Source: an uncultured Acidobacteriota bacterium (GTDB lineage: Bacteria > Acidobacteriota > JAAYUB01). From it: DNA of 64,000 nt. Where the stretch lies: assembly GCA_964436005.1 (NCBI GenBank), contig CAYTBK010000001.1, forward strand, positions 21,526-85,525, written 5' to 3'. This document shows, in pieces, positions 6,302-40,246 of the stretch; the stretch's first letter is position 1; the number at the start of each line of letters is the position of its first letter. The position numbers were made by a program, and so were the translations under genes. The notes under the pieces are model-generated. The model saw only the letters and a list, made by a program, of their open reading frames with translations. It did no database searches and was not told the DNA's origin.

Positions 6302-7990
6302 TCACTTCTTGCCCTTGAAAAGGGACTTCATGTCCATTTTCAGGAAATCCTTGAGCTGGGCGCTCTTCTTGGTCGCGATACCGAGGGCGTGCTTCGCGGT
6401 TTCGTTCTCGGGGTCGATCTCCAGCACCCTCTCCCAGTAACGCCGGGCCCTGGACTTGAGCTGAACCTTCTCGTAGAGGAGGGCCAGTTCCAGAAGGAAC
6501 TCGATGCGGTTGGGACTGAGCTCCTCGGCCTTCAGCAGCCGCTCCTCCGCCTCCTTCAGCTTCTGGGGGAGCATGCACAGCGTCTTGCCGAGCATGAACT
6601 GGAGTTCCGGCTTCTCCGGCTCCAGCCGCACCGCCTCGCGGAAGTGCTCCATGGCGTCGAAGAACTTCTTCTGCTTGAACGCTTCCTTGCCGTGGGTGAA
6701 GTGCTGCAGCGCCTTGTGCGCCTGGTTCTCGAAGGCGCGCTCCTTCTCCTTGGGCTCGGGCGGGGCTCCCGGCGCCGAGGCCGGGGCCGCCGCCAGCTTC
6801 GGCTGGGGAGGGTGGCGCTCGTCGTACGAGGCCCGCTTCACGGGGTCCTTGAGGGTCTCGTACGCCGTCGTGATGCCCACGAAGACCGCGTCGACCATCT
6901 TCAAAAACTCCGGGTCCTTGATGCTGTGGAACAGGTCGGGGTGGAACTTGCGCGTCCGGTCGAAATACGCCTTCTTGACTTCCTCCGGGGCGGCCCCGGC
7001 CGCCAGGTCCAACACGGCGTAGTAATCGTGCTTCTCCACCAGGATGGCCATGTCGAGGACGTCTTCGCGCACGTCCTGGGGCACGGTCCCCGCCGGGCTT
7101 TCCTTCGGCGGCTCGGCCGGCCGTCGCGGTGGCGGCGCCGGTGCCGGAGGGGGAGCGGGGGGCGCGCTTTCCTCTTTCCGTTCGGCCGGCCGCGGTTCGG
7201 TCCGCCGAGGCGGAGGAGACGGCTCCTCTTTCGAAAAGACCGTTTCCTTCCGCCCCGCTCCGGACGGCCGGGCGGAACTGGCGCCGAAAGGCGAAGGGCC
7301 GGCCGGCCGCGGAGAATCAGGCGCTGCGGACGGCGGGACTTTGATGATGCCAAAAAATTGCAGTAGCAATGCGGTGCGCAGGGTCAGGTCTTCCGGCAGG
7401 GCGCAGCTCAGGACCAGGTCGTGCAACGACAGGCCGTTCTGCAGACGCGTCAGGACGAACGCCTGCTGGGGCGTCAGTGGAATCCGCGAGGCCCTGGCCA
7501 TGAAATCGGCCGGGATGTCCAGTTTGCGGGCCAGGTTTCCCAACTGCGCCCGCACGGCCGATTCCGCCAGGCACTGGGAAAAATAGGCCGACAGGACGGC
7601 CGCAGCGGAAATCTTCCCCCCACCCTCCGCGGGTTCCACCGGCGAAATGAGGAACTGGATGGAAACGGATATTCCGGGCCGGGACAGGTCGGCCAGCGCG
7701 CCGGCCAAAAAGCCCACCACTGCGGCCATGGCTTCCCTGGTGCCGGGGAAGGAGGAGAGGGAGGCCCCCTCGGGAGATTCCCGCGGCAGGGGGCTTTCGC
7801 CCAGGGGAGTCACCCCGATGCGGCCCAGGATGTCCGTGTCGAGGGAGACGATCCGCCCTGAGGCCAGCCCCAGGTGCAACCGCCGATTCTCGAAAGGCAT
7901 CTCGAGGATTCCGGAGGCGTCGTCCTCGTAGACGTTCTTGACGACCTTCAGGATGCTCCCTTCCGCAATGTCACCGCTCATCTTTCCCAT
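6302..7990 (-). CDS. J-domain (DnaJ-like) protein with N-terminal DUF4388-like domain, Pro-rich linker and C-terminal TPR repeats
   Basis: 562 aa. The J-domain is DYYAVLDL...KKAYF...FHPDL. The N-terminal [28 protein letters not shown] resembles DUF4388. The C-terminus carries TPR-like repeats. Confidence 0.75.
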
Positions 7991-17349: not shown

Positions 17350-18398
17350 AGAGCTTGTTGCTGTTCGACGCGGAAGTGCAGCCATATCGCCAGCCCATCT
17401 ACGAATGGCTGGCCGGGGAGTTTGCCCGGCATGGGTACCGTCTCCACATCGTCTACGACACCCGAAGAAACCACTTGGCGGGCGGGTTGTACACCGGCGT
17501 CCGCTTCAGTTTCCGCTCTTTTCGGAGAATTGCCGCCGAACACGATTGCCGTGTGATGATCCTGTTCGTCTGGCTCCGGTACAAATTTTTGCTCCCCTTC
17601 ATGATGTACGCCCGGTGGAAGGGGATTCGCATGGTATCCTGGTGCCACGGAATTAATTTACAGAAGAAAGATCAATTTTGGGTGAACAAGCTTTACTATA
17701 TCCGGCAGAAGCTGGCCCATGCCGTTCTCCTGTACTCGGAAAGCGAGAGGAAACATGTGCGCACCAAGGCTGCCAAGGTTTTCGTCGCGAACAACACCCT
17801 GAATTTCGAGGCAATCCCGTCCATCCTGTCCTCCCGAGAGGAGTTGAAGGAAAAGTACGGTCTCGCGGGAAAGAAGGTGGTGCTGTGCGTAGGTCGGATG
17901 GACGTCAACAACCGCAAACCCCAGTACCTGGTTGACGGCTTCGAGCGGTTCCCTTTTCCGGGAGGCTTCCTCCTGCTGGTCGGGCCGGGACTTGACCCAG
18001 TCCTGGTTCGCCGAATGGAGAACCGGGAAAACATGCGCGCGGTTGGACCCATTTACGATCCCATCCCCGTCAACGAATTGTTTCGGCTAGCGGACGTGTT
18101 CTGCATGCCGGGCGCCATCGGCCTGGCGATAAACCAGGCGTTTTATCATGGGCTACCCGTTGTGCTGGAAAACGTGAATCACGGGCCGGAAGGCATCTAT
18201 TTCCAGGAAGGGCGAAATGGCCTGCTTTTCCGCGAAGGGGATGTTGAAGACATGATGGCAAAGCTGAAACAGCTTTGCAGCGATGAAGCCCTTCAGCAGT
18301 CCTTTTCCGCCCAGGCGAAAAAAACGGTGGGCCGGCAGGCCCGGATGGATCTGATGCTGGCCGGGTTTCTCCAGGCGGTCCGTTATGCAGAACACTGA
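17346..18398 (+). CDS. glycosyltransferase family 4
   Basis: 350 aa. GTG start overlaps the upstream stop. It has a GT4 C-terminal domain. Confidence 0.8.
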   Translation: MKSLLLFDAEVQPYRQPIYEWLAGEFARHGYRLHIVYDTRRNHLAGGLYTGVRFSFRSFRRIAAEHDCRVMILFVWLRYKFLLPFMMYARWKGIRMVSWCHGINLQKKDQFWVNKLYYIRQKLAHAVLLYSESERKHVRTKAAKVFVANNTLNFEAIPSILSSREELKEKYGLAGKKVVLCVGRMDVNNRKPQYLVDGFERFPFPGGFLLLVGPGLDPVLVRRMENRENMRAVGPIYDPIPVNELFRLADVFCMPGAIGLAINQAFYHGLPVVLENVNHGPEGIYFQEGRNGLLFREGDVEDMMAKLKQLCSDEALQQSFSAQAKKTVGRQARMDLMLAGFLQAVRYAEH

Positions 18399-34229: not shown

Positions 34230-35972
34230 CTACTCCATGCGAAGGTGCAGTTCCTTGAGCTGGCGTCCGGACACCTCGGAAGGGGCCCCCGAAAGCAGGC
34301 ACATGGCCGAGGTGGTCTTCGGGAAGGCGATAACGTCGCGGATCGAGGTTTCGCCCGCCAGCAGCATCACCAGCCTGTCGAGCCCCAGGGCGATGCCGCC
34401 GTGCGGGGGCGCGCCGTAGCGCAGGGCGTCGAGGAAGAAGCCGAACTTTTCCCGCGCTTCCTCCGGGGTGAAGCCCAGGGCGCCGAAGACCTTCTCCTGC
34501 AGGTCGGTGCGGTGGATCCGGACGGACCCGCCGCCGAGCTCCAGGCCGTTGAGGATCACGTCGTAAGCCAGGGCCTTGGCGGCGCCCGGATCGTCGAAGT
34601 CGGGGTCGGCCGGGGCGGTGAAGGGGTGGTGGCAGGCCACGTAACGCCCCTCCTCCTCGCTGAACTCGAACATGGGGAAGTCCGTCACCCACAGGAAGTC
34701 GAAGCGCGCGGGGTCCATGAGGCCCTCGCGGCGCCCCAGGTGCAGGCGCAGGCCGCCCAGCGCGGCCAGGACGGTCTTCTCCGGCCCGGCCACCATCAGC
34801 AGGGCGTCGCCCACGGCCCCGTTCACCGCGCCCACCAGGGCGCGCTTTTCGTCGTCGGTGACGGCGGCGGGCAGCGAGGAGCGCAGGGCCCCCTCCTCCG
34901 ACTTCACCCAGGCCAGGCCGCCGGCGCCGAGGTGCTTGACCACGTCCTGGAAGCCGTCCAGGTCCTTCCGGCTGTACTTGGCGCCGCCCGGGACCAGGAT
35001 GCCCCGGATCGTCCCGCCCTCCTCCACGATCTTCCGGAACACCCCGAAGGCCGACTCGCGGAAGTGCCCGGACACGTCCTGCAGCTCCAGGCCGAAGCGG
35101 GTGTCGGGCCGGTCGGACCCGAAACGCGACATGGCCTCGGCGTACGGCAGGCGCGGGAACGGGACGGGGATCTCCTTCCCGATCAGCCGGCACAGCCGCA
35201 CCAGCAGGCCTTCGATCAGCGAGTAGATGTCCTCCGGAGCGATGAAGCTCATCTCGATGTCGATCTGGGTGAACTCCGGCTGCCGGTCGGCCCGCAAATC
35301 CTCGTCCCGGAAGCAGCGGGCGACCTGGTAGTACCGGTCCATGCCCGAGACCATGAGCATCTGCTTGAAGAGCTGGGGGCTCTGGGGCAACGCATAGAAG
35401 CGGCCCTTGTGGATGCGGCTGGGCACCAGGTAGTCGCGGGCGCCTTCCGGCGTGGAGTGGGTGAGGAAGGGCGTCTCGATTTCCAGGAAGGCGTTTTCGT
35501 CCAGGTAGCGGCGCGTTTCGCCGGTCACCCGGTGGCGCAGCACGAGATTCCGCACCATGGGTGCGCGCCGGAGGTCCAGGTAGCGGTACTTCATGCGCAG
35601 TTCCTCCGAGGCCCGGACCTCGTCCTGGATCTCGAAGGGGGGCAGTTCGGAGGGGCTCAGGATCTCCACGGCCTTCCCCACCACCTCGACGCGGCCGGTG
35701 GCCAGCTCCGGGTTGACGTTCTCCGCCTCGCGCTCCCGGACGACGCCGGCCGCGCGGACCACGTACTCGCTCTTGATTTCCTCCGCCGAGGCGAACAGGC
35801 CCGGATCGTCCTCCTTGCAGAACGTGACCTGGGTCAGGCCGTGCCGGTCCCGGATCTGCAGGAACAGCAGCCCGCCCAGGTTGCGCACGGCGTGGGCCCA
35901 GCCGGTCAGGGTCACCGACCGCCCCACGTCGGCCACCGTCAATTCTCCGCAGTGATGGGTTCTCATGCTCAT
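34230..35972 (-). CDS. aspS: aspartate--tRNA ligase
   Basis: 580 aa starting [12 protein letters not shown]. Class II aaRS motifs are present ([18 protein letters not shown]; GGSVRIHR; GLDRLVMLL). The 5' extension of track ORF 34230..36821 is rejected. Confidence 0.9.
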
Positions 35973-36127
35973 GAAGTCCTCGCGCTTGCAGGTTGGGTCT
36001 GGAGGCCTCCCCCGGCGCCGGACCGGCCGAAGGCCGGGCCCCGCCCGCGGAATGCGTCCGAAAGCGGCATTGTACCACAACTGGACGGCGCATTCCGTAC
36101 ACGCTGGATTCCTTGGCCGCCCGGGAG

Positions 36128-36133
36128 TATAAT
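36128..36133 (+). promoter_or_regulatory. perfect TATAAT -10 hexamer 32 nt upstream of the 36165 gene
   Basis: Read directly as gggagTATAATccg. No clear -35 is present. Confidence 0.3.
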
Positions 36134-36164
36134 CCGTCCAAACTTCATTTTTTCTGGAGGAACC

Positions 36165-36659
36165 ATGAGACATCTGAGAACCGTTCTTCTGGCCGCCGTC
36201 CTGGCCATGCTGGGCGCCCAACTGCTGGCCGGCGACCAACCCCTGCCCAACCCCACCGCCACCCAGCCGTCCTATCCGCAGAAACTGGAATGGGACCTGA
36301 AGATCGCCCCCGACACCCTCTTCTACACCCTCTGCACGGCGCAGCGCGTCACGGACAAGAACGCCGTTTCCTGGACCGTCCCCACCCAGGGCTTCCGGGA
36401 CTTCCGGGTGGTGGTCTTCACCGCCGGCGCCGAACGGACGTCCAAGGTGGTCGCCACGCAGTTGAAAGTCACCTGCTCCGTCAAGAACGGCGAGAAGAAG
36501 TTCGACTACTTCAAGCGCGACGTGGCCATCGACACGAACTCGCCGAGAACCGACGGGGAAGCCATGCTGGTGCCCGTCTACGGGCAGGAGACCACCCTCG
36601 AGATCGAGCCCCGCAACATGAACACCGACCTGTTCGTCACCGTGTACCTGCTGAAGTAG
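36165..36659 (+). CDS. secreted hypothetical protein (signal peptide [23 protein letters not shown])
   Basis: 164 aa with a GGAGG Shine-Dalgarno. It is the C-terminal part of track ORF 34161..36659. Confidence 0.65.
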
Positions 36660-36679
36660 ACGGTTTCCGGAAATCCCCG

Positions 36680-36716
36680 GCGCCGGGCGGGGCAGCCCCC
36701 CTCCCGGCGCTTTTCC
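36680..36716 (+). terminator. GC-rich hairpin followed by CTTTTCC; putative intrinsic terminator
   Basis: GCGCCGGGCGGGG cagcc CCCCTCCCGGCGC, then TTTTCC. Confidence 0.5.
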
Positions 36717-37071
36717 TTCCTGCGTCGCTTCCCCGTTTCCGAGGCCGCCGCTAGGCGAGAGGCGGCGTACCGCGGCCCGTTGGGCGCATCCCCGTGTGCC
36801 GCGGGATAATTGCCGGCGCAACCGAGCATCGGCCCGGCAGGGCCGACGGAAAGTAGCCCGGGCGCCAGTCCCCGATTCTCTATCACCTCACCGGCGGGCC
36901 TCCTGCCGGCTACTGGGTAGGATTAACCACGAAACCACGAAGCGGCGCCGTCGGCGCCGGATCCCTGAGCCCGGGCCGCAGGCCCGGGGCGAAAGCGCCC
37001 GGAATCGCCCAGGCGGCCTGCCGGGCCGCGACCGGCCCGACCCGGGCGGAGAAACGGTCCTGGCCATGGAA

Positions 37072-37147
37072 ATCCATGCCCTCCGGGCAAAAGGCCCGGT
37101 CTCCCGTTCGTGGCCTTTGCGACCTTCGTGTTGCGGACAAACACGAA
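37072..37147 (+). repeat. imperfect direct repeat unit, copy A (~76 nt; ATCCATGCCCTCCGGGCAAAA ... GTTCGTG ... CCTTTG ... GTGTTG ... AAACACGAAG)
   Basis: It aligns block-by-block with copy B at 37467..37553, at roughly 75% identity. Confidence 0.6.
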
Positions 37148-37394
37148 GCGCACGACCAGCCACGAAGGGGGACGGCGAGGCTTGCGTTAAGATTTGCGGA
37201 CGGGAAACCGGTTGCGGGAATTGCCATGAGGCCGGGGCGCGCCTCTCCGCGTTCGGCGCTCCGGCGGCCTGCGCGCCGCACTCCTGGTTGCGCGCGGCGC
37301 GAGGCTTCACCTGCCGGCTTTTTCTCCGGCCGTCCCGGCCAGCTCGGGGGCGTGTGCGCGCATCGGCGATTCGCCACCGACGATGGATCTGGAT

Positions 37395-37458
37395 GCCCTC
37401 CGGGCAAGGATCCATCGGGGCAAACGCGCGGGCTATGGACATTCATGCCCTACGGGCA
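37395..37458 (+). repeat. two additional copies of the 13-bp dyad TGCCCT(C/A)CGGGCA (37395..37407 and 37446..37458), each preceded by AT
   Basis: Read directly. Together with 37077..37089 and 37472..37484 this gives four dyads in about 400 bp. Confidence 0.6.
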
Positions 37459-37466
37459 AAGATTCG

Positions 37467-37553
37467 ATCCATGCCCTACAGGCAAAACCCGGTTTCACCT
37501 CGTTCGTGTCCTTGGTGGCCTTTGTGTTGAGAAAAAACACGAGGCTCGCGGTG
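37467..37553 (+). repeat. imperfect direct repeat unit, copy B (~87 nt)
   Basis: ATCCATGCCCTACAGGCAAAA ... GTTCGTG ... CCTTTG ... GTGTTG ... AAACACGAGG. It contains a hairpin TGTGTT-gagaaaa-AACACA. Confidence 0.6.
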
Positions 37554-37653
37554 TTAGGCGGTGCCTGACACATTTGCCCACTTCCCCTTGCCCGGATATC
37601 GCATTCCTCAATAACTCATTTTTTATCTGTCGTTTATTTCATGCCGAACTTTT

Positions 37654-37671
37654 TTGCTAATTTTTTAGCAA
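37654..37671. promoter_or_regulatory. perfect 7-4-7 inverted repeat TTGCTAAttttTTAGCAA; candidate operator of the BlaI-family repressor
   Basis: It lies 66 nt upstream of the repressor ATG, in an AT-rich promoter region. A half-site-like TTTTAGCAG follows at 37682. Confidence 0.45.
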
Positions 37672-37736
37672 GGTGCTGAACTTTTAGCAGCGACCTGTCG
37701 TATCATATGCCGAAAACGAATGAACGGAGGTTCGGA

Positions 37737-38126
37737 ATGGCTCCCAAAGACGTGGAAACCCTGAGCCGGAGGGAACGGCAGATCATGGACGTCCTGTATG
37801 CCCGCGGCGAGGGCACCGTGGCGGAGGTCATGGAAAACCTGCCCGAAGCGCCCGGCTACTCCGCCGTCCGGGCCCTGCTCCGGATCCTGGAGGAAAAGGG
37901 GCGGGTGGTGCACCGCCAGGACGGCGCCCGCTACATCTACATGCCGGCCACCGACCGGGAAACCGCCGGCCGCACCGCCGCCAAGCGGCTGATGGCCACG
38001 TTTTTCGGGGGTTCCCCGGCCGAAGCCGCCGCCGCCCTCATCGGCGCCGCCGAGCGCCCTTTGACCGAAGAGGAATACGAATCTCTTCACCGCCTCATCG
38101 AGGAGGCGCGCAAGGAGGGAAGATGA
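37737..38126 (+). CDS. BlaI/MecI/CopY-family transcriptional repressor
   Basis: About 129 aa. The winged-helix region is RERQIMDVLYARGEGTVAEVMENLPE...RALLRILEEKGRV. The SD is GGAGG and the start is MAPKDVETLS. Confidence 0.85.
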   Translation: MAPKDVETLSRRERQIMDVLYARGEGTVAEVMENLPEAPGYSAVRALLRILEEKGRVVHRQDGARYIYMPATDRETAGRTAAKRLMATFFGGSPAEAAAALIGAAERPLTEEEYESLHRLIEEARKEGR

Positions 38127-40246
38127 CCGACGCAGCGCTCTTCATTCCCCTGGCGGAGTTCGCCTTCCGGAGTTTTCTCCTGTACGGCCTGGCCTGGGTC
38201 CTCTGGATCCGGATCCGCAAGACGGCGCCCCGGACGCGGACCATGTTCTGGACCGCCGCGGCCGTGGCGTCCCTGCTCCTCCCCGCCGCCGGACTGGCCG
38301 GGGGCGAAGGGAAGCTGGGCCTGCTGGTCACCCCCTCCTGGACGAAAGCCATCGGCGACACCCCCGCGGCGCCGGAAACGGTGCGGGCCATCCCCCACCG
38401 CAACGCGGAAGTCGCCCCCCCGGCCCGGCCCGCCATCTCGCCGGTCCAGCCGGAGGCGGTCGCCACGAAGACGCGGGGCCCCGTCCGGAAAGCCCACCGG
38501 GAAACGGCCCCGCGCCTCCTGTCGGCAGACGCGCGCAGCCTGGCGCCCCGCCCCGCCCCGGCGGTGTCTTCCGCCCCGGCCTCGTTGCCTCCGGCCCCGG
38601 CCGTCCAACCCGCGCCTGCGCCCGTGCCCGCACCCGTCCAGACCATGTCCGCCGAGTCCGTCGAATTCCTCTTGTGCTGTCTGCCCCTGATTTGGCTGGC
38701 CGGCGTCCTTTTTGCCCTGGGGCGCTGCGTGTACGCGCACATCCGCTTGAAATGCCTCATCCGCAAAACCATCGAGGCGGATGAGTTCCCCGCCGGTTCC
38801 CCCGTCGGCATCGTGCTGCGCCTGGCGGAGGCCGTCGGCGTGAAGATTCGGTTCGGCGAAAAGGTGCAGACGCCCCTGGCCGTCGGTTGGCGCCGCCCCC
38901 TGATCCTCCTCCCGACCGAGGCCCTCCTGTGGCCCCCCGAGGAGCTCCGCAGCGTCATTCTGCACGAGACGGCCCACATCCGGAACCTGGACATGCTAAC
39001 CCGACTGGCCGGAAAAGCCTCCTGCATTCTGGCCTGGTTCAACCCCCTGACCTGGAAGTCCCAGCAGGAAATGATCGCCGCCCAGGAAGAAGCTGCTGAT
39101 CACAGCGTCTTGCAGGGCGGGATCCGCCCCTCTGACTATGCACGCCAGCTCGTCTCCCTGGCCCGGGGCATGCGCACCGCCTGTTTCGCCGGCGCGGCGG
39201 CGCTCGGCATCGCCCCCCGCACACGTTTCGAGCGCCGTGTACGGCGATTGCTGCAACCCACCCATTCTCACAAGGAGCAAGTCATGAAGAGAAAATCCAT
39301 AGTCGTCATAGCGGCCGCCGTGGTCCTGGCCTTCGGCCTGGCCTGGCTCTCGCCCTTCTCGCCCCTGTCGGCCGCCTCCGCGCCCGCCAAGGCACTTTCG
39401 ACGGACACCGCATCCCTGCACCCGGAAACGCCCGGAAAACCGCCGGCCCCTCCCGCCCCGCCAACTCCCCCGGCCCCTCCGAGAGACGTCGACGATAACG
39501 ACGGCGAAGGGGACGTGAGCGAGATAGACGAACCCGACGAGCCCGAAGAACCCGAGGAAAACGATTCGGAAGAAGCTCGTCACCGGGAAGCCGAGGCCGA
39601 ACACCTGGAAGCCCAGGCCAAACAGTGGGAAGCCCAGGCCAGGAACTGGGACGCCAACGCCGAGCGCATCGCCGAATCCGTCTCCCGCTCCCTCGAGCAC
39701 CTGAAGGACCTCGGCCCCCGGATCCAGGAGCACGTCCGGCAGGCCTGCGCCCACATCCCCGACCAGGCCGCCCTGCGCGCCCAGATCGAGGAAAACATGA
39801 AGCATGTCCGGACGAAGCTCAACGACCCCGCCTTCCGGGAAAAGCTGAGACTCCAGATGGAGAAGGTGCGCCGGGAATTCCGGGACGTCTCCAAGGTGCG
39901 CGAGAAAATCCGCCAGGAGATGGAAGAGACCCTGGCCAAGCTGGAGAAGAAGGAAGCCGCCGCCTCGGCGTCGGCCAAGCCCGGGATCGCCATGGCCAAG
40001 AAGCAGGTGCGCGAAGTCATGGAGGGCCTCCTGGCCAACCCGGACTTCCCCCTGAGCGAGGTCCAGATCGACGCCCTGGAGAAATCCGTCACCGAAAGCA
40101 TCGAGTCCGCCCTGTCCGCGGCTTCCTGCTGGACGGCCCCCCCCGTGCCGCCGGCGCCCCCGGCCCTGCCGAAAACCGTGACGCCGAAGGCCAAGCCGGT
40201 TCCGCCGGCCCCTCCGGTTCCCCCGGTCCCACCGGCCAGGAATTGA
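38123..40246 (+). CDS. M56-family (BlaR1/MecR1-like) membrane zinc metalloprotease signal transducer with non-PBP C-terminal domain
   Basis: The start overlaps the repressor stop (ATGA). HETAH (HEXXH) follows TM3. After the last TM the C-terminal roughly 300 aa are Pro-rich, acidic and coiled-coil, with a PPAPP-repeat tail. No penicillin-binding motifs are present. Confidence 0.8.
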   Translation: MTDAALFIPLAEFAFRSFLLYGLAWVLWIRIRKTAPRTRTMFWTAAAVASLLLPAAGLAGGEGKLGLLVTPSWTKAIGDTPAAPETVRAIPHRNAEVAPPARPAISPVQPEAVATKTRGPVRKAHRETAPRLLSADARSLAPRPAPAVSSAPASLPPAPAVQPAPAPVPAPVQTMSAESVEFLLCCLPLIWLAGVLFALGRCVYAHIRLKCLIRKTIEADEFPAGSPVGIVLRLAEAVGVKIRFGEKVQTPLAVGWRRPLILLPTEALLWPPEELRSVILHETAHIRNLDMLTRLAGKASCILAWFNPLTWKSQQEMIAAQEEAADHSVLQGGIRPSDYARQLVSLARGMRTACFAGAAALGIAPRTRFERRVRRLLQPTHSHKEQVMKRKSIVVIAAAVVLAFGLAWLSPFSPLSAASAPAKALSTDTASLHPETPGKPPAPPAPPTPPAPPRDVDDNDGEGDVSEIDEPDEPEEPEENDSEEARHREAEAEHLEAQAKQWEAQARNWDANAERIAESVSRSLEHLKDLGPRIQEHVRQACAHIPDQAALRAQIEENMKHVRTKLNDPAFREKLRLQMEKVRREFRDVSKVREKIRQEMEETLAKLEKKEAAASASAKPGIAMAKKQVREVMEGLLANPDFPLSEVQIDALEKSVTESIESALSAASCWTAPPVPPAPPALPKTVTPKAKPVPPAPPVPPVPPARN

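Follow-up and report, generated by a model that had tools for sequence, protein, structure and literature searches.

Four short dyads upstream of a blaI-blaR1-like gene pair in an acidobacterial contig are probably REP-like hairpin units of a Y1 transposase-linked repeat family

What are the short repeats that fill a 1-kb gap in front of a BlaI/BlaR1-like gene pair in an uncultured Acidobacteriota bacterium? The stretch analyzed here, called the window, is 64,000 nucleotides of contig CAYTBK010000001.1 (GenBank assembly GCA_964436005.1, positions 21,526 to 85,525 of the forward strand), and all coordinates below are counted from its first letter. The gap is the interval between a 155-aa gene (36192-36659, + strand) and the blaI/blaR1-like pair, and contains four copies of a small dyad as well as two longer direct repeats. 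The initial annotation, made from the sequence alone, had interpreted the dyads as a site array for a dimeric protein, possibly the BlaI-like repressor, and had named two paralogous small RNAs or a degenerate repeat family as alternatives. We consider it probable that the four dyads are same-strand hairpin units similar to repetitive extragenic palindromic (REP) sequences, which belong to a family linked to Y1 transposases and form an orphan array here, and unlikely that they are a dedicated regulator of blaI. Among the earlier readings the degenerate repeat family lies nearest to the evidence.

The dyad ATGCCCTMCRGGCA was found four times, at 37076, 37393, 37445 and 37471, always on the + strand, against 0.11 matches expected by chance, and none of 100 shuffles reached a count of four. 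All four copies reported at first were thus recovered, 1-2 nt away from the positions originally given for them. They were scored with a motif hidden Markov model (HMM) that had been built from Bacteroidota copies only and contained no window sequence, and are the cores of the following units:

37066-37092, + strand: REP-like unit 1, ATGGAAATCCA-TGCCC-TCC-GGGCA-AAA, hairpin at 37077-37089; motif HMM E = 1.4e-6; exact pattern match
37381-37408, + strand: REP-like unit 2, ATGGATCTGGA-TGCCC-TCC-GGGCA-AGG, hairpin at 37394-37406; motif HMM E = 1.1e-7
37433-37460, + strand: REP-like unit 3, ATGGACATTCA-TGCCC-TAC-GGGCA-AAG, hairpin at 37446-37458; motif HMM E = 1e-9
37461-37487, + strand: REP-like unit 4, decayed, TCCA-TGCCC-TAC-AGGCA-AAA; pattern match, innermost pair broken

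Units 1-3 have the longer form ATGGAnnTnnA-TGCCC-TnC-GGGCA-A in common, in which a conserved 5' flank of ~11 nt (ATGGAnnTnnA) is followed by a 5-bp stem TGCCC/GGGCA closed by C-G around a T-N-C loop. In the predicted fold, the hairpin of unit 2 is lengthened by an outer stem GATGGATC/GATCCATC. Regarding the differences between copies, which had been thought to fall only in the spacer or outside the dyad, copy 4 (TGCCC-TAC-AGGCA) differs inside the right arm; its motif HMM match is weak (37470-37486, E = 0.09), and AGGCA also takes the place of GGGCA in three further members of the family, of which two have TAC and one has TGC as the loop. Unit 3 starts 52 nt after unit 2, and unit 4 starts 26 nt after unit 3. 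With a length of ~26-28 nt and a 5-bp stem, and lying in DNA without coding signal, the units are short imperfect extragenic palindromes in the sense in which REPs (20-40 nt) are defined. Neither blastn nor the motif HMM detected any further copy in the window. A marginal match at 18186-18205, which has no hairpin, was judged to be due to chance, and two minus-strand GC-rich hairpins at 36831 and 36973, which fit the generic hairpin definition given below and lack the family flank, were left uncounted.

The unit was then sought in GTDB, using one genome per species and the pattern ATGGANNTNSATGCCCTNCRGGCAA derived from units 1-3. This gave 26 matching stretches in GTDB species representatives, compared with about one chance match estimated for uniform base composition (19 fixed and 2 two-fold positions, 1.2e12 positions). 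Two matches (loci L011 and L016) lie inside genes and look like chance, leaving 24 real motif-selected loci. These are intergenic and come from metagenome-assembled genomes (MAGs) of Bacteroidota (Bacteroidales, Prolixibacteraceae, Lentimicrobiaceae and others) and from one Opitutae MAG. Of the repeats, which the initial annotation had allowed might be found nowhere else, the dyad unit is thus present almost unchanged in many Bacteroidota MAGs. Several genomes or loci bear more than one copy; for instance, the strict pattern matched six times at four loci of chromosome OZ223471 and four times at three loci of OY781436, and more degenerate copies were seen in addition. Beyond the pattern itself, the matches have the context ttttctATGGATATTGATGCCCTACGGGCAAa in common, with ttttct preceding ATGGA, and a second similar hairpin, aatGTCCtaacGGACaat or aaTTCCCtaacGGGAAaa, ~50 nt upstream. 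The family consensus of the motif HMM is TTTTCTATGGATATTGA-TGCCC-TAC-GGGCA-AGAG, and this foreign-built model recovers window units at E = 1e-9, 1e-7 and 1e-6.

The stem of the family covaries. In units chosen by sequence alone, 96.6% of cells were paired and 22 double-sided changes were counted versus 2.2 expected, a level reached in none of 500 shuffles. Spacings between same-strand hairpins show a peak at 48-53 nt and a second peak at 25 nt, next to which the spacings of 52 and 26 nt in the window can be placed, and direct tandem arrays extend to ~20 units; in arrays of the L043 type the whole 52-nt unit repeats, including the part between hairpins. Copies of the family are found in either orientation with respect to the genes beside them. 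Judged by sequence, the family is dispersed in Bacteroidota genomes, and it probably reaches Verrucomicrobiota, on the one Opitutae match. Literature searches, both with the unit sequence and for REPs in Bacteroides or Acidobacteria, retrieved no description of this repeat.

Some loci of the family have further features of their own. On OY781436 and OZ223471 (L010, L020, L021, L023 and L003), heptamer-like tandem arrays, (CTTGTCC)n, (CTTGTCA)n or (CTTAGTCA)n, lie 40-130 nt downstream of many REP-like doublets; G-quadruplexes are possible in their complement, (GGGACAA)n, and their similarity to the CTTCGTG-type tails of the window is only marginal (E = 0.03). L028 (Bacteroidales OZ223471) contains at 7189-7854 at least four head-to-tail units of 214 nt, each composed of a REP-like doublet and a hairpin GGCGCAAGC-N-GCTTGTGCC followed by a T-rich run, terminator-like, which may be either a composite element or an array resembling small RNAs. 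In a Bacteroides sp. MAG (L025, 4090-4244), two divergent, that is inverted, units stand 105 nt apart between divergent genes; this 'empty bracket' resembles the arrangement around Y1 genes described next, with no gene inside.

Four of the 24 motif-selected loci have a Y1 gene (L013, L018 and L026) or part of one (L022) no more than 300 nt from the motif. The open reading frame (ORF) encodes ~155 aa, starts with MANTY.Q, matches Pfam Y1_Tnp at E = 1e-26 and passes the NCBIfam model transpos_IS200 (71 and 73 bits, cutoff 55). Its closest solved relatives are TnpA enzymes of IS200/IS605 elements (2F4F, E = 2e-8; 2XM3, E = 4e-6; 2A6M, E = 0.09). By its motifs DH[LV]H, WQ and YIENQQxHH the protein matches subclass 1.2 as defined by Quentin et al. 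2018 (PMC6006769), who described this subclass as low-copy, present in Cyanobacteria and Bacteroidetes, not insertion sequence (IS)-like, and without REPs.

Because circularity had to be avoided, the association was also examined in reverse, at 80 metagenome loci picked by the Y1 protein alone as the best 80 of 531 confirmed relatives. The motif Y...Q..HH is present in 78 and DH[ILVF]H in all 80 of these proteins. Motif-HMM matches were obtained at 20 of 24 loci whose Y1 protein is at least 56.8% identical to that of L018, versus one of 56 more distant loci. Their orientation was strongly biased: upstream of the Y1 gene 31 matches were on the - strand and one on the + strand, and downstream 20 + strand matches next to the stop codon were followed by 23 on the - strand. 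A sequence-independent class of generic hairpins was also defined (perfect 5-bp stem, innermost pair C-G, loop T-N(1-2)-C). Such hairpins numbered 300 within 300 nt of Y1 genes (44.5 kb) versus 11 in 124 kb more than 1 kb away, and three inside Y1 coding sequence (36.6 kb), and they were inverted around the gene (125 - versus 26 + upstream; 112 + versus 37 - downstream). Out of 74 loci with both flanks available, 70 had at least one. The stems are lineage-specific yet complementary (TGCCC, AGCCC, TGTCC, TTCCC, GTCCC, GCCCC, GCGCC, GCACC, TTCAC and others), and TTCCC, TGTCC and TGCCC stems occur together at the single locus L029. In Bacteroidota, and probably in Verrucomicrobiota, the unit is accordingly the cognate repeat of a subclass 1.2 IS200-like Y1 (HUH) transposase-like gene, on both sides of which it stands in inverted copies and in tandem arrays.

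A GC-rich branch of subclass-1.2-type Y1 proteins is abundant in Verrucomicrobiae, where automatic annotation labels them 'RayT' (JGI) or IS200/IS605 (NCBI). The Y1 family is very large: a single query of the Verrucomicrobiae type matched 7671 cluster representatives at E <= 1e-40. Many contigs with subclass 1.2 Y1 genes among L029-L108 are only 1-3 kb long and end near the gene, which fits assembly breaks in hairpin arrays.

How such units might have come to the window can be proposed from known enzymes. In the model for IS608 TnpA and E. coli TnpA-REP, a Y1 dimer recognises a hairpin in single-stranded DNA, next to which the strand is cut and rejoined. By analogy, a Y1 dimer would recognise the unit hairpin in single-stranded DNA and would then cut and rejoin beside it, and in this way units would multiply and be carried into intergenic DNA. 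In the window, a palindromic tail was probably duplicated along with one unit, which gave rise to the two long repeats. What survives of the original idea of a dimeric protein is probably that the hairpins are recognised by a dimeric Y1 transposase on single-stranded DNA, if the analogy with the solved relatives holds.

Several points weigh against this reading, and they concern the window as well as the family. The partner protein fails the model of REP-associated tyrosine transposases (RAYTs), REP_Tyr_transpos (27.3 and 25.7 bits, cutoff 80), and the units have neither the GTAG nor the CGTC tag of classical REPs; in copies with a TAC loop GTAG turns up solely on the complementary strand of that loop, and copies with a TCC loop do not have it. 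Neither a Y1 gene nor a remnant of one was detected in the window by tblastn or by a profile search of the six-frame translation, and the cluster is therefore termed an orphan array, the Y1 partner of which may be elsewhere in the genome or lost. Moreover, every documented Y1 association comes from other phyla, no Y1 locus from Acidobacteriota was found, the sole Verrucomicrobiota motif match (L005) may be a chance match, and there is no second unit cluster anywhere in the 64 kb. Mobilisation of the units by a Y1 protein would have analogy as its basis. Finally, REP-like units leave the tails of the long repeats, a cluster of CACGAAG motifs and ~600 nt of GC-rich spacer (36713-37065 and 37171-37380) unaccounted for.

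These remaining parts are made up as follows:

37103-37170, no strand assigned: 68-nt imperfect palindrome, the tail of long repeat 1; inverted repeats with CTTCGTG/CACGAAG-like short motifs
37488-37550, + strand: partial copy of the tail in long repeat 2, with the left arm and a weak inner hairpin, no outer right arm; z = -0.6
36925-36944, + strand: two tandem AACCACGA units of the CACGAA(G) motif (Tandem Repeats Finder: period 8, 2.1 copies)
36943-36959, 36970-36988 and 37022-37039, no strand assigned: three short GC-rich hairpins with stems CGGCGCCG (twice), CCCGGGCC/GGCCCGGG and CGGGCCG/CGGCCCG

The two imperfect direct repeats of ~80-90 nt described initially were confirmed, with 76.7% identity between 37072-37154 and 37467-37550 (86 columns, E = 1e-12). 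Each had been said to end in a hairpin, and this holds for the first, CTTCGTGTT/AACACGAAG, which forms a perfect 9-bp stem (37124-37132/37140-37148), whereas the second is weaker, with a G-T pair in TGTGTT...AACACG and no significant folding. The first hairpin is the core of the 68-nt palindrome, whose outer stem of 12 bp is CCCGTTCGTGGC/GCCACGAAGGGG, and the DNA fold of 37060-37175, the unit of long repeat 1, gave z = -5.7. The palindromic tail appears to be lineage-specific: when all fetched loci were searched with nhmmer and blastn, nothing beyond marginal low-complexity matches to Bacteroidales heptamer arrays was obtained (E = 0.03-0.1), and exact-pattern scans of viral contigs yielded no match to the tail; a scan of viral contigs with the unit motif was likewise empty. 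A likeness of the tail to the Y1 flank of L092 was rejected as not significant, with 8 of 300 shuffles scoring equally well. The short motif CACGAA(G) is common to the tandem units at 36925-36944 and the tail palindrome, and five of the 20 matches to MCACGAAR in the window fall within the 240 nt of 36927-37167.

The GC-rich hairpins reported at 36880-37060 do exist, but they are no more structured than shuffles (36920-37065, z = -1.7; 13 of 200 same-composition shuffles folded as well), and the motif HMM found no match in 36943-37039. They probably reflect base composition and were not assigned to the REP-like family. Together with the REP-like units, the tails, the CACGAAG cluster and the spacer make the region a mosaic of the kind seen in bacterial interspersed mosaic elements (BIMEs).

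The setting of the cluster was examined next. No credible ORF had been recognised in 36660-37700, and every test agreed with this: GC content at third codon positions (GC3) is 0.84-0.94 in the real genes of the window, versus 0.58-0.72 at all three codon positions for every ORF of 36660-37560, and in the frame plot the periodicity is lost at 36660 and returns at ~37740. None of the long ORFs of the region had a Pfam match, a 61-aa ORF (37383-37568) had no homologue among 5.8 billion proteins even at E <= 10, and no tRNA or tmRNA was found in the region. On its downstream side stand the blaI homologue (37737-38126; Pfam Penicillinase_R, E = 1.8e-23) and the blaR1 homologue (38123-40246; Pfam Peptidase_M56, E = 1.7e-21). 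The BlaR1-like protein has 707 aa with the M56 peptidase domain at residues 166-352, and its C-terminal half is long, Pro/Ala-rich, charged and coiled-coil-like, with no sensor domain recognisable in Pfam. On the upstream side, an exact-sequence look-up of the 155-aa protein gave no record, and its gene is followed by one further feature:

36680-36716, + strand: terminator-like hairpin of the 155-aa gene, GCGCCGGGCGGGG-N5-CCCCTCCCGGCGC followed by TTTTCC; inverted repeat, with the stem-loop spanning 36680-36710

Comparison with relatives placed the cluster exactly where gene order departs from the closest one, beside blaI-blaR1. The best-matching named relatives by aspartyl-tRNA synthetase (AspRS) are Acidobacteriota MAGs with 75%, 65% and 60% identity, which makes an acidobacterial host probable; in the first of them (L110, 75%) the neighbouring genes are not the same. 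A much closer scaffold (L109, ENA ERZ28614311 scaffold_16300; AspRS 97% identical) is 92% identical in DNA over 35913-36712 and unrelated beyond, with a convergent gene in place of the repeat region and blaI-blaR1. The break at 36712 is just past the terminator of the 155-aa gene. Since synteny ends there, the segment that holds the repeats and blaI-blaR1 varies between strains, and the lower GC3 of blaI and blaR1 (0.84-0.85 versus 0.93-0.94 in neighbouring genes) suggests that it was acquired more recently. Two Logan contigs with an identical blaI (L001 and L002, from SRR10083293 and SRR10083296) both start at 37413, between units 2 and 3, which indirectly hints at a branch of the assembly graph caused by the repeats or by strain polymorphism.

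The first of the other explanations is that decay has produced most of the region, for instance from a pseudogene or as the scar of a rearrangement, with local repeats whose likeness to the Bacteroidota family is chance or convergence. Taken as a whole we regard it as unlikely. It would fit the single cluster in 64 kb, the ~600 nt of GC-rich DNA left without explanation and the start of the region where synteny with the closest relative stops. On the other hand, a model built from foreign copies matches three clustered units at E = 1e-9 to 1e-6, the spacings of 52 and 26 nt match the array periods of the family, and neither similarity to a protein nor a coding periodicity survives as a sign of a pseudogene. 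Decay is thus a possible description of the region outside the repeats and an unlikely one for the units themselves.

The second explanation, that the long repeats or the single units are genes or processing signals of small structured RNAs, seems to us slightly less probable again. Covariation of the stem is equally expected of an RNA hairpin, and long repeat 1 folds far better than its shuffles; long repeat 2, however, is not significantly structured. Rfam 15 gave no match at the gathering score in the window and 12 related loci, and none at E <= 1 in 36600-37760. The scan for promoters and terminators revealed no promoter-like site and a single terminator-like match, on the - strand (37550-37538), versus 1.9 expected from shuffles; it gave no + strand terminator. 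The hairpin is followed by an A-run with no T-run. The tails are without a homologue elsewhere, and the members face both ways relative to their neighbours and are inverted around Y1 genes, indicating a symmetry at the level of DNA. The proposal of two paralogous small RNAs accordingly finds no support, transcription as such being possible.

Less probable still, and in our opinion very improbable, is that the dyads are a double-stranded operator array for a dimeric transcription factor, BlaI-like or other, controlling blaI-blaR1. BlaI-family proteins bind dyads as dimers, and known BlaI/MecI-type operators are TACA/TGTA-type dyads overlapping the promoter. Four 5-N3-5 dyads on one strand, 250-670 nt upstream of blaI, look suitable at first sight, and like the operators of BlaI, MecI and CopY they are dyad-symmetric and close to a gene for a Penicillinase_R-family repressor. 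Nevertheless, dozens of sites in other phyla have the unit together with its asymmetric 5' flank, genome-wide in organisms with no blaI nearby. It brackets Y1 genes specifically, and Y1 is its consistent genomic partner. Furthermore, stems that covary while staying complementary, and different self-complementary stems side by side at single loci such as L029, fit a hairpin and not half-sites read base by base. The dyads are also far from the blaI promoter region, while another feature lies at a typical operator distance:

37654-37689, no strand assigned: two palindromes, TTGCTAA-N4-TTAGCAA (37654-37671) and TGCTGAA-CT-TTTAGCA (37674-37689), not of the repeat family

These palindromes stand in an AT-rich stretch (GC 0.45) 50-80 nt upstream of the blaI start. 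They are better operator candidates than the dyads and likely the true operator or promoter region of the BlaI-like repressor; their sequence is unlike the classical TACA/TGTA bla/mec operators. The supposed BlaI link of the dyad array is left without support.

A short peptide M(E/D)(I/L)(H/D)ALRA(K/R), for example a leader peptide, had been judged unlikely from the start and is now refuted: units 1-3 do begin with ATG and differ mostly at third codon positions (MEIHALRAK in copy 1, MDIHALRAK in copy 3, MDLDALRAR in copy 2), but members found without requiring ATG frequently have ATT or ACT at that site (ATTGATATTGATGCCC, ACTGATATAGATGCCC), conservation stops directly after GGGCAA, GC3 is flat compared with the genes, no homologue or Pfam match exists, and long repeat 2, which was said to encode M(E/D)IHALRAK like long repeat 1, gives in copy 4 only IHALQAK with no ATG.

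We therefore return to REP-like hairpin units linked to Y1 proteins, for which a wider reading can be advanced tentatively, as one that falls a little short of being probable. The hairpin unit and the subclass 1.2 Y1 protein would form a large, undescribed REP-RAYT-like system in Bacteroidota and Verrucomicrobiota, extended by the window to Acidobacteriota, with a 5-bp hairpin, a T-N-C loop and direct arrays of ~50/25 nt in place of the doublets known as REPINs (REP doublets forming hairpins). The cluster in the window would then be an outpost of it, placed where a rearrangement specific to the strain introduced blaI-blaR1 and perhaps having a part in that event. The repeats give the impression of a parasitic or domesticated cluster, and to ascribe them a local effect, for instance stabilisation of RNA ends or a hot spot of recombination, is speculative.

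As for the practical consequences, the dyads should be masked by annotation pipelines and not be read as operators of BlaI, as small RNAs or as a gene for a peptide. An entire subclass of IS200-like Y1 proteins, catalogued as REP-less and very abundant in Bacteroidota and Verrucomicrobiae, seems to have cognate hairpin repeats with a distinctive architecture and covarying, lineage-specific stems. The hairpin unit offers a simple testable substrate for an uncharacterised group of HUH enzymes and a new point of comparison for the evolution of domesticated transposase systems of the REP-RAYT type, and the flanking arrays give a practical explanation of the frequent assembly breaks next to Y1 genes.

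Among known systems, CRISPR arrays consist of conserved repeats and variable spacers, whereas the unit arrays (L043) repeat the whole unit and are thus not CRISPR-like. IS200/IS605 elements (IS200, IS608, ISDra2) resemble the family in that their TnpA enzymes are the nearest solved relatives of the partner protein, and these enzymes recognise small imperfect hairpins in single-stranded DNA. Such elements, however, carry end hairpins in the same orientation and exist as near-identical copies of the whole IS, while the hairpins flanking Y1 genes are inverted, form long arrays and occur at many sites without a gene, and the window has no tnpA.

REP/RAYT systems of Proteobacteria (REPtrons, REPINs and BIMEs) have several traits in common with the unit family. 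In both, short extragenic hairpin repeats are dispersed as well as clustered in intergenic DNA, a cognate single- or low-copy Y1 HUH gene is flanked by inverted copies, and the repeat sequence co-varies with the protein lineage; mosaic clusters with other short motifs are a further trait that the family has in common with BIMEs. The differences lie in the very short 5-bp stem with its conserved T-N-C loop; in the arrangement as direct tandem arrays (48-53 or 25 nt) and not inverted doublets, the four window units being all on the + strand and inverted pairs, unlike REPIN doublets, being confined to the surroundings of Y1 genes and L025; in the IS200-like partner, which passes transpos_IS200 and not the RAYT model; and in the distribution, since classical REPs are confined to a genus or species and the near-identical unit spans several Bacteroidota orders and reaches other phyla. 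Given the missing GTAG/CGTC tag, the 5-bp stem, the direct arrays, the IS200-like partner and the cross-phylum unit, we did not file the family as a member of RAYT/REPIN.

A counterpart on the protein side is subclass 1.2 as published (PMC6006769), with which the partner proteins agree in DH[IV]H, WQ and Y---Q--HH, in their length of ~150 aa and in their occurrence in Bacteroidetes. They depart from the published description in having flanking hairpins at nearly every locus with both flanks available (70/74) and in a distribution that extends strongly into Verrucomicrobiae.

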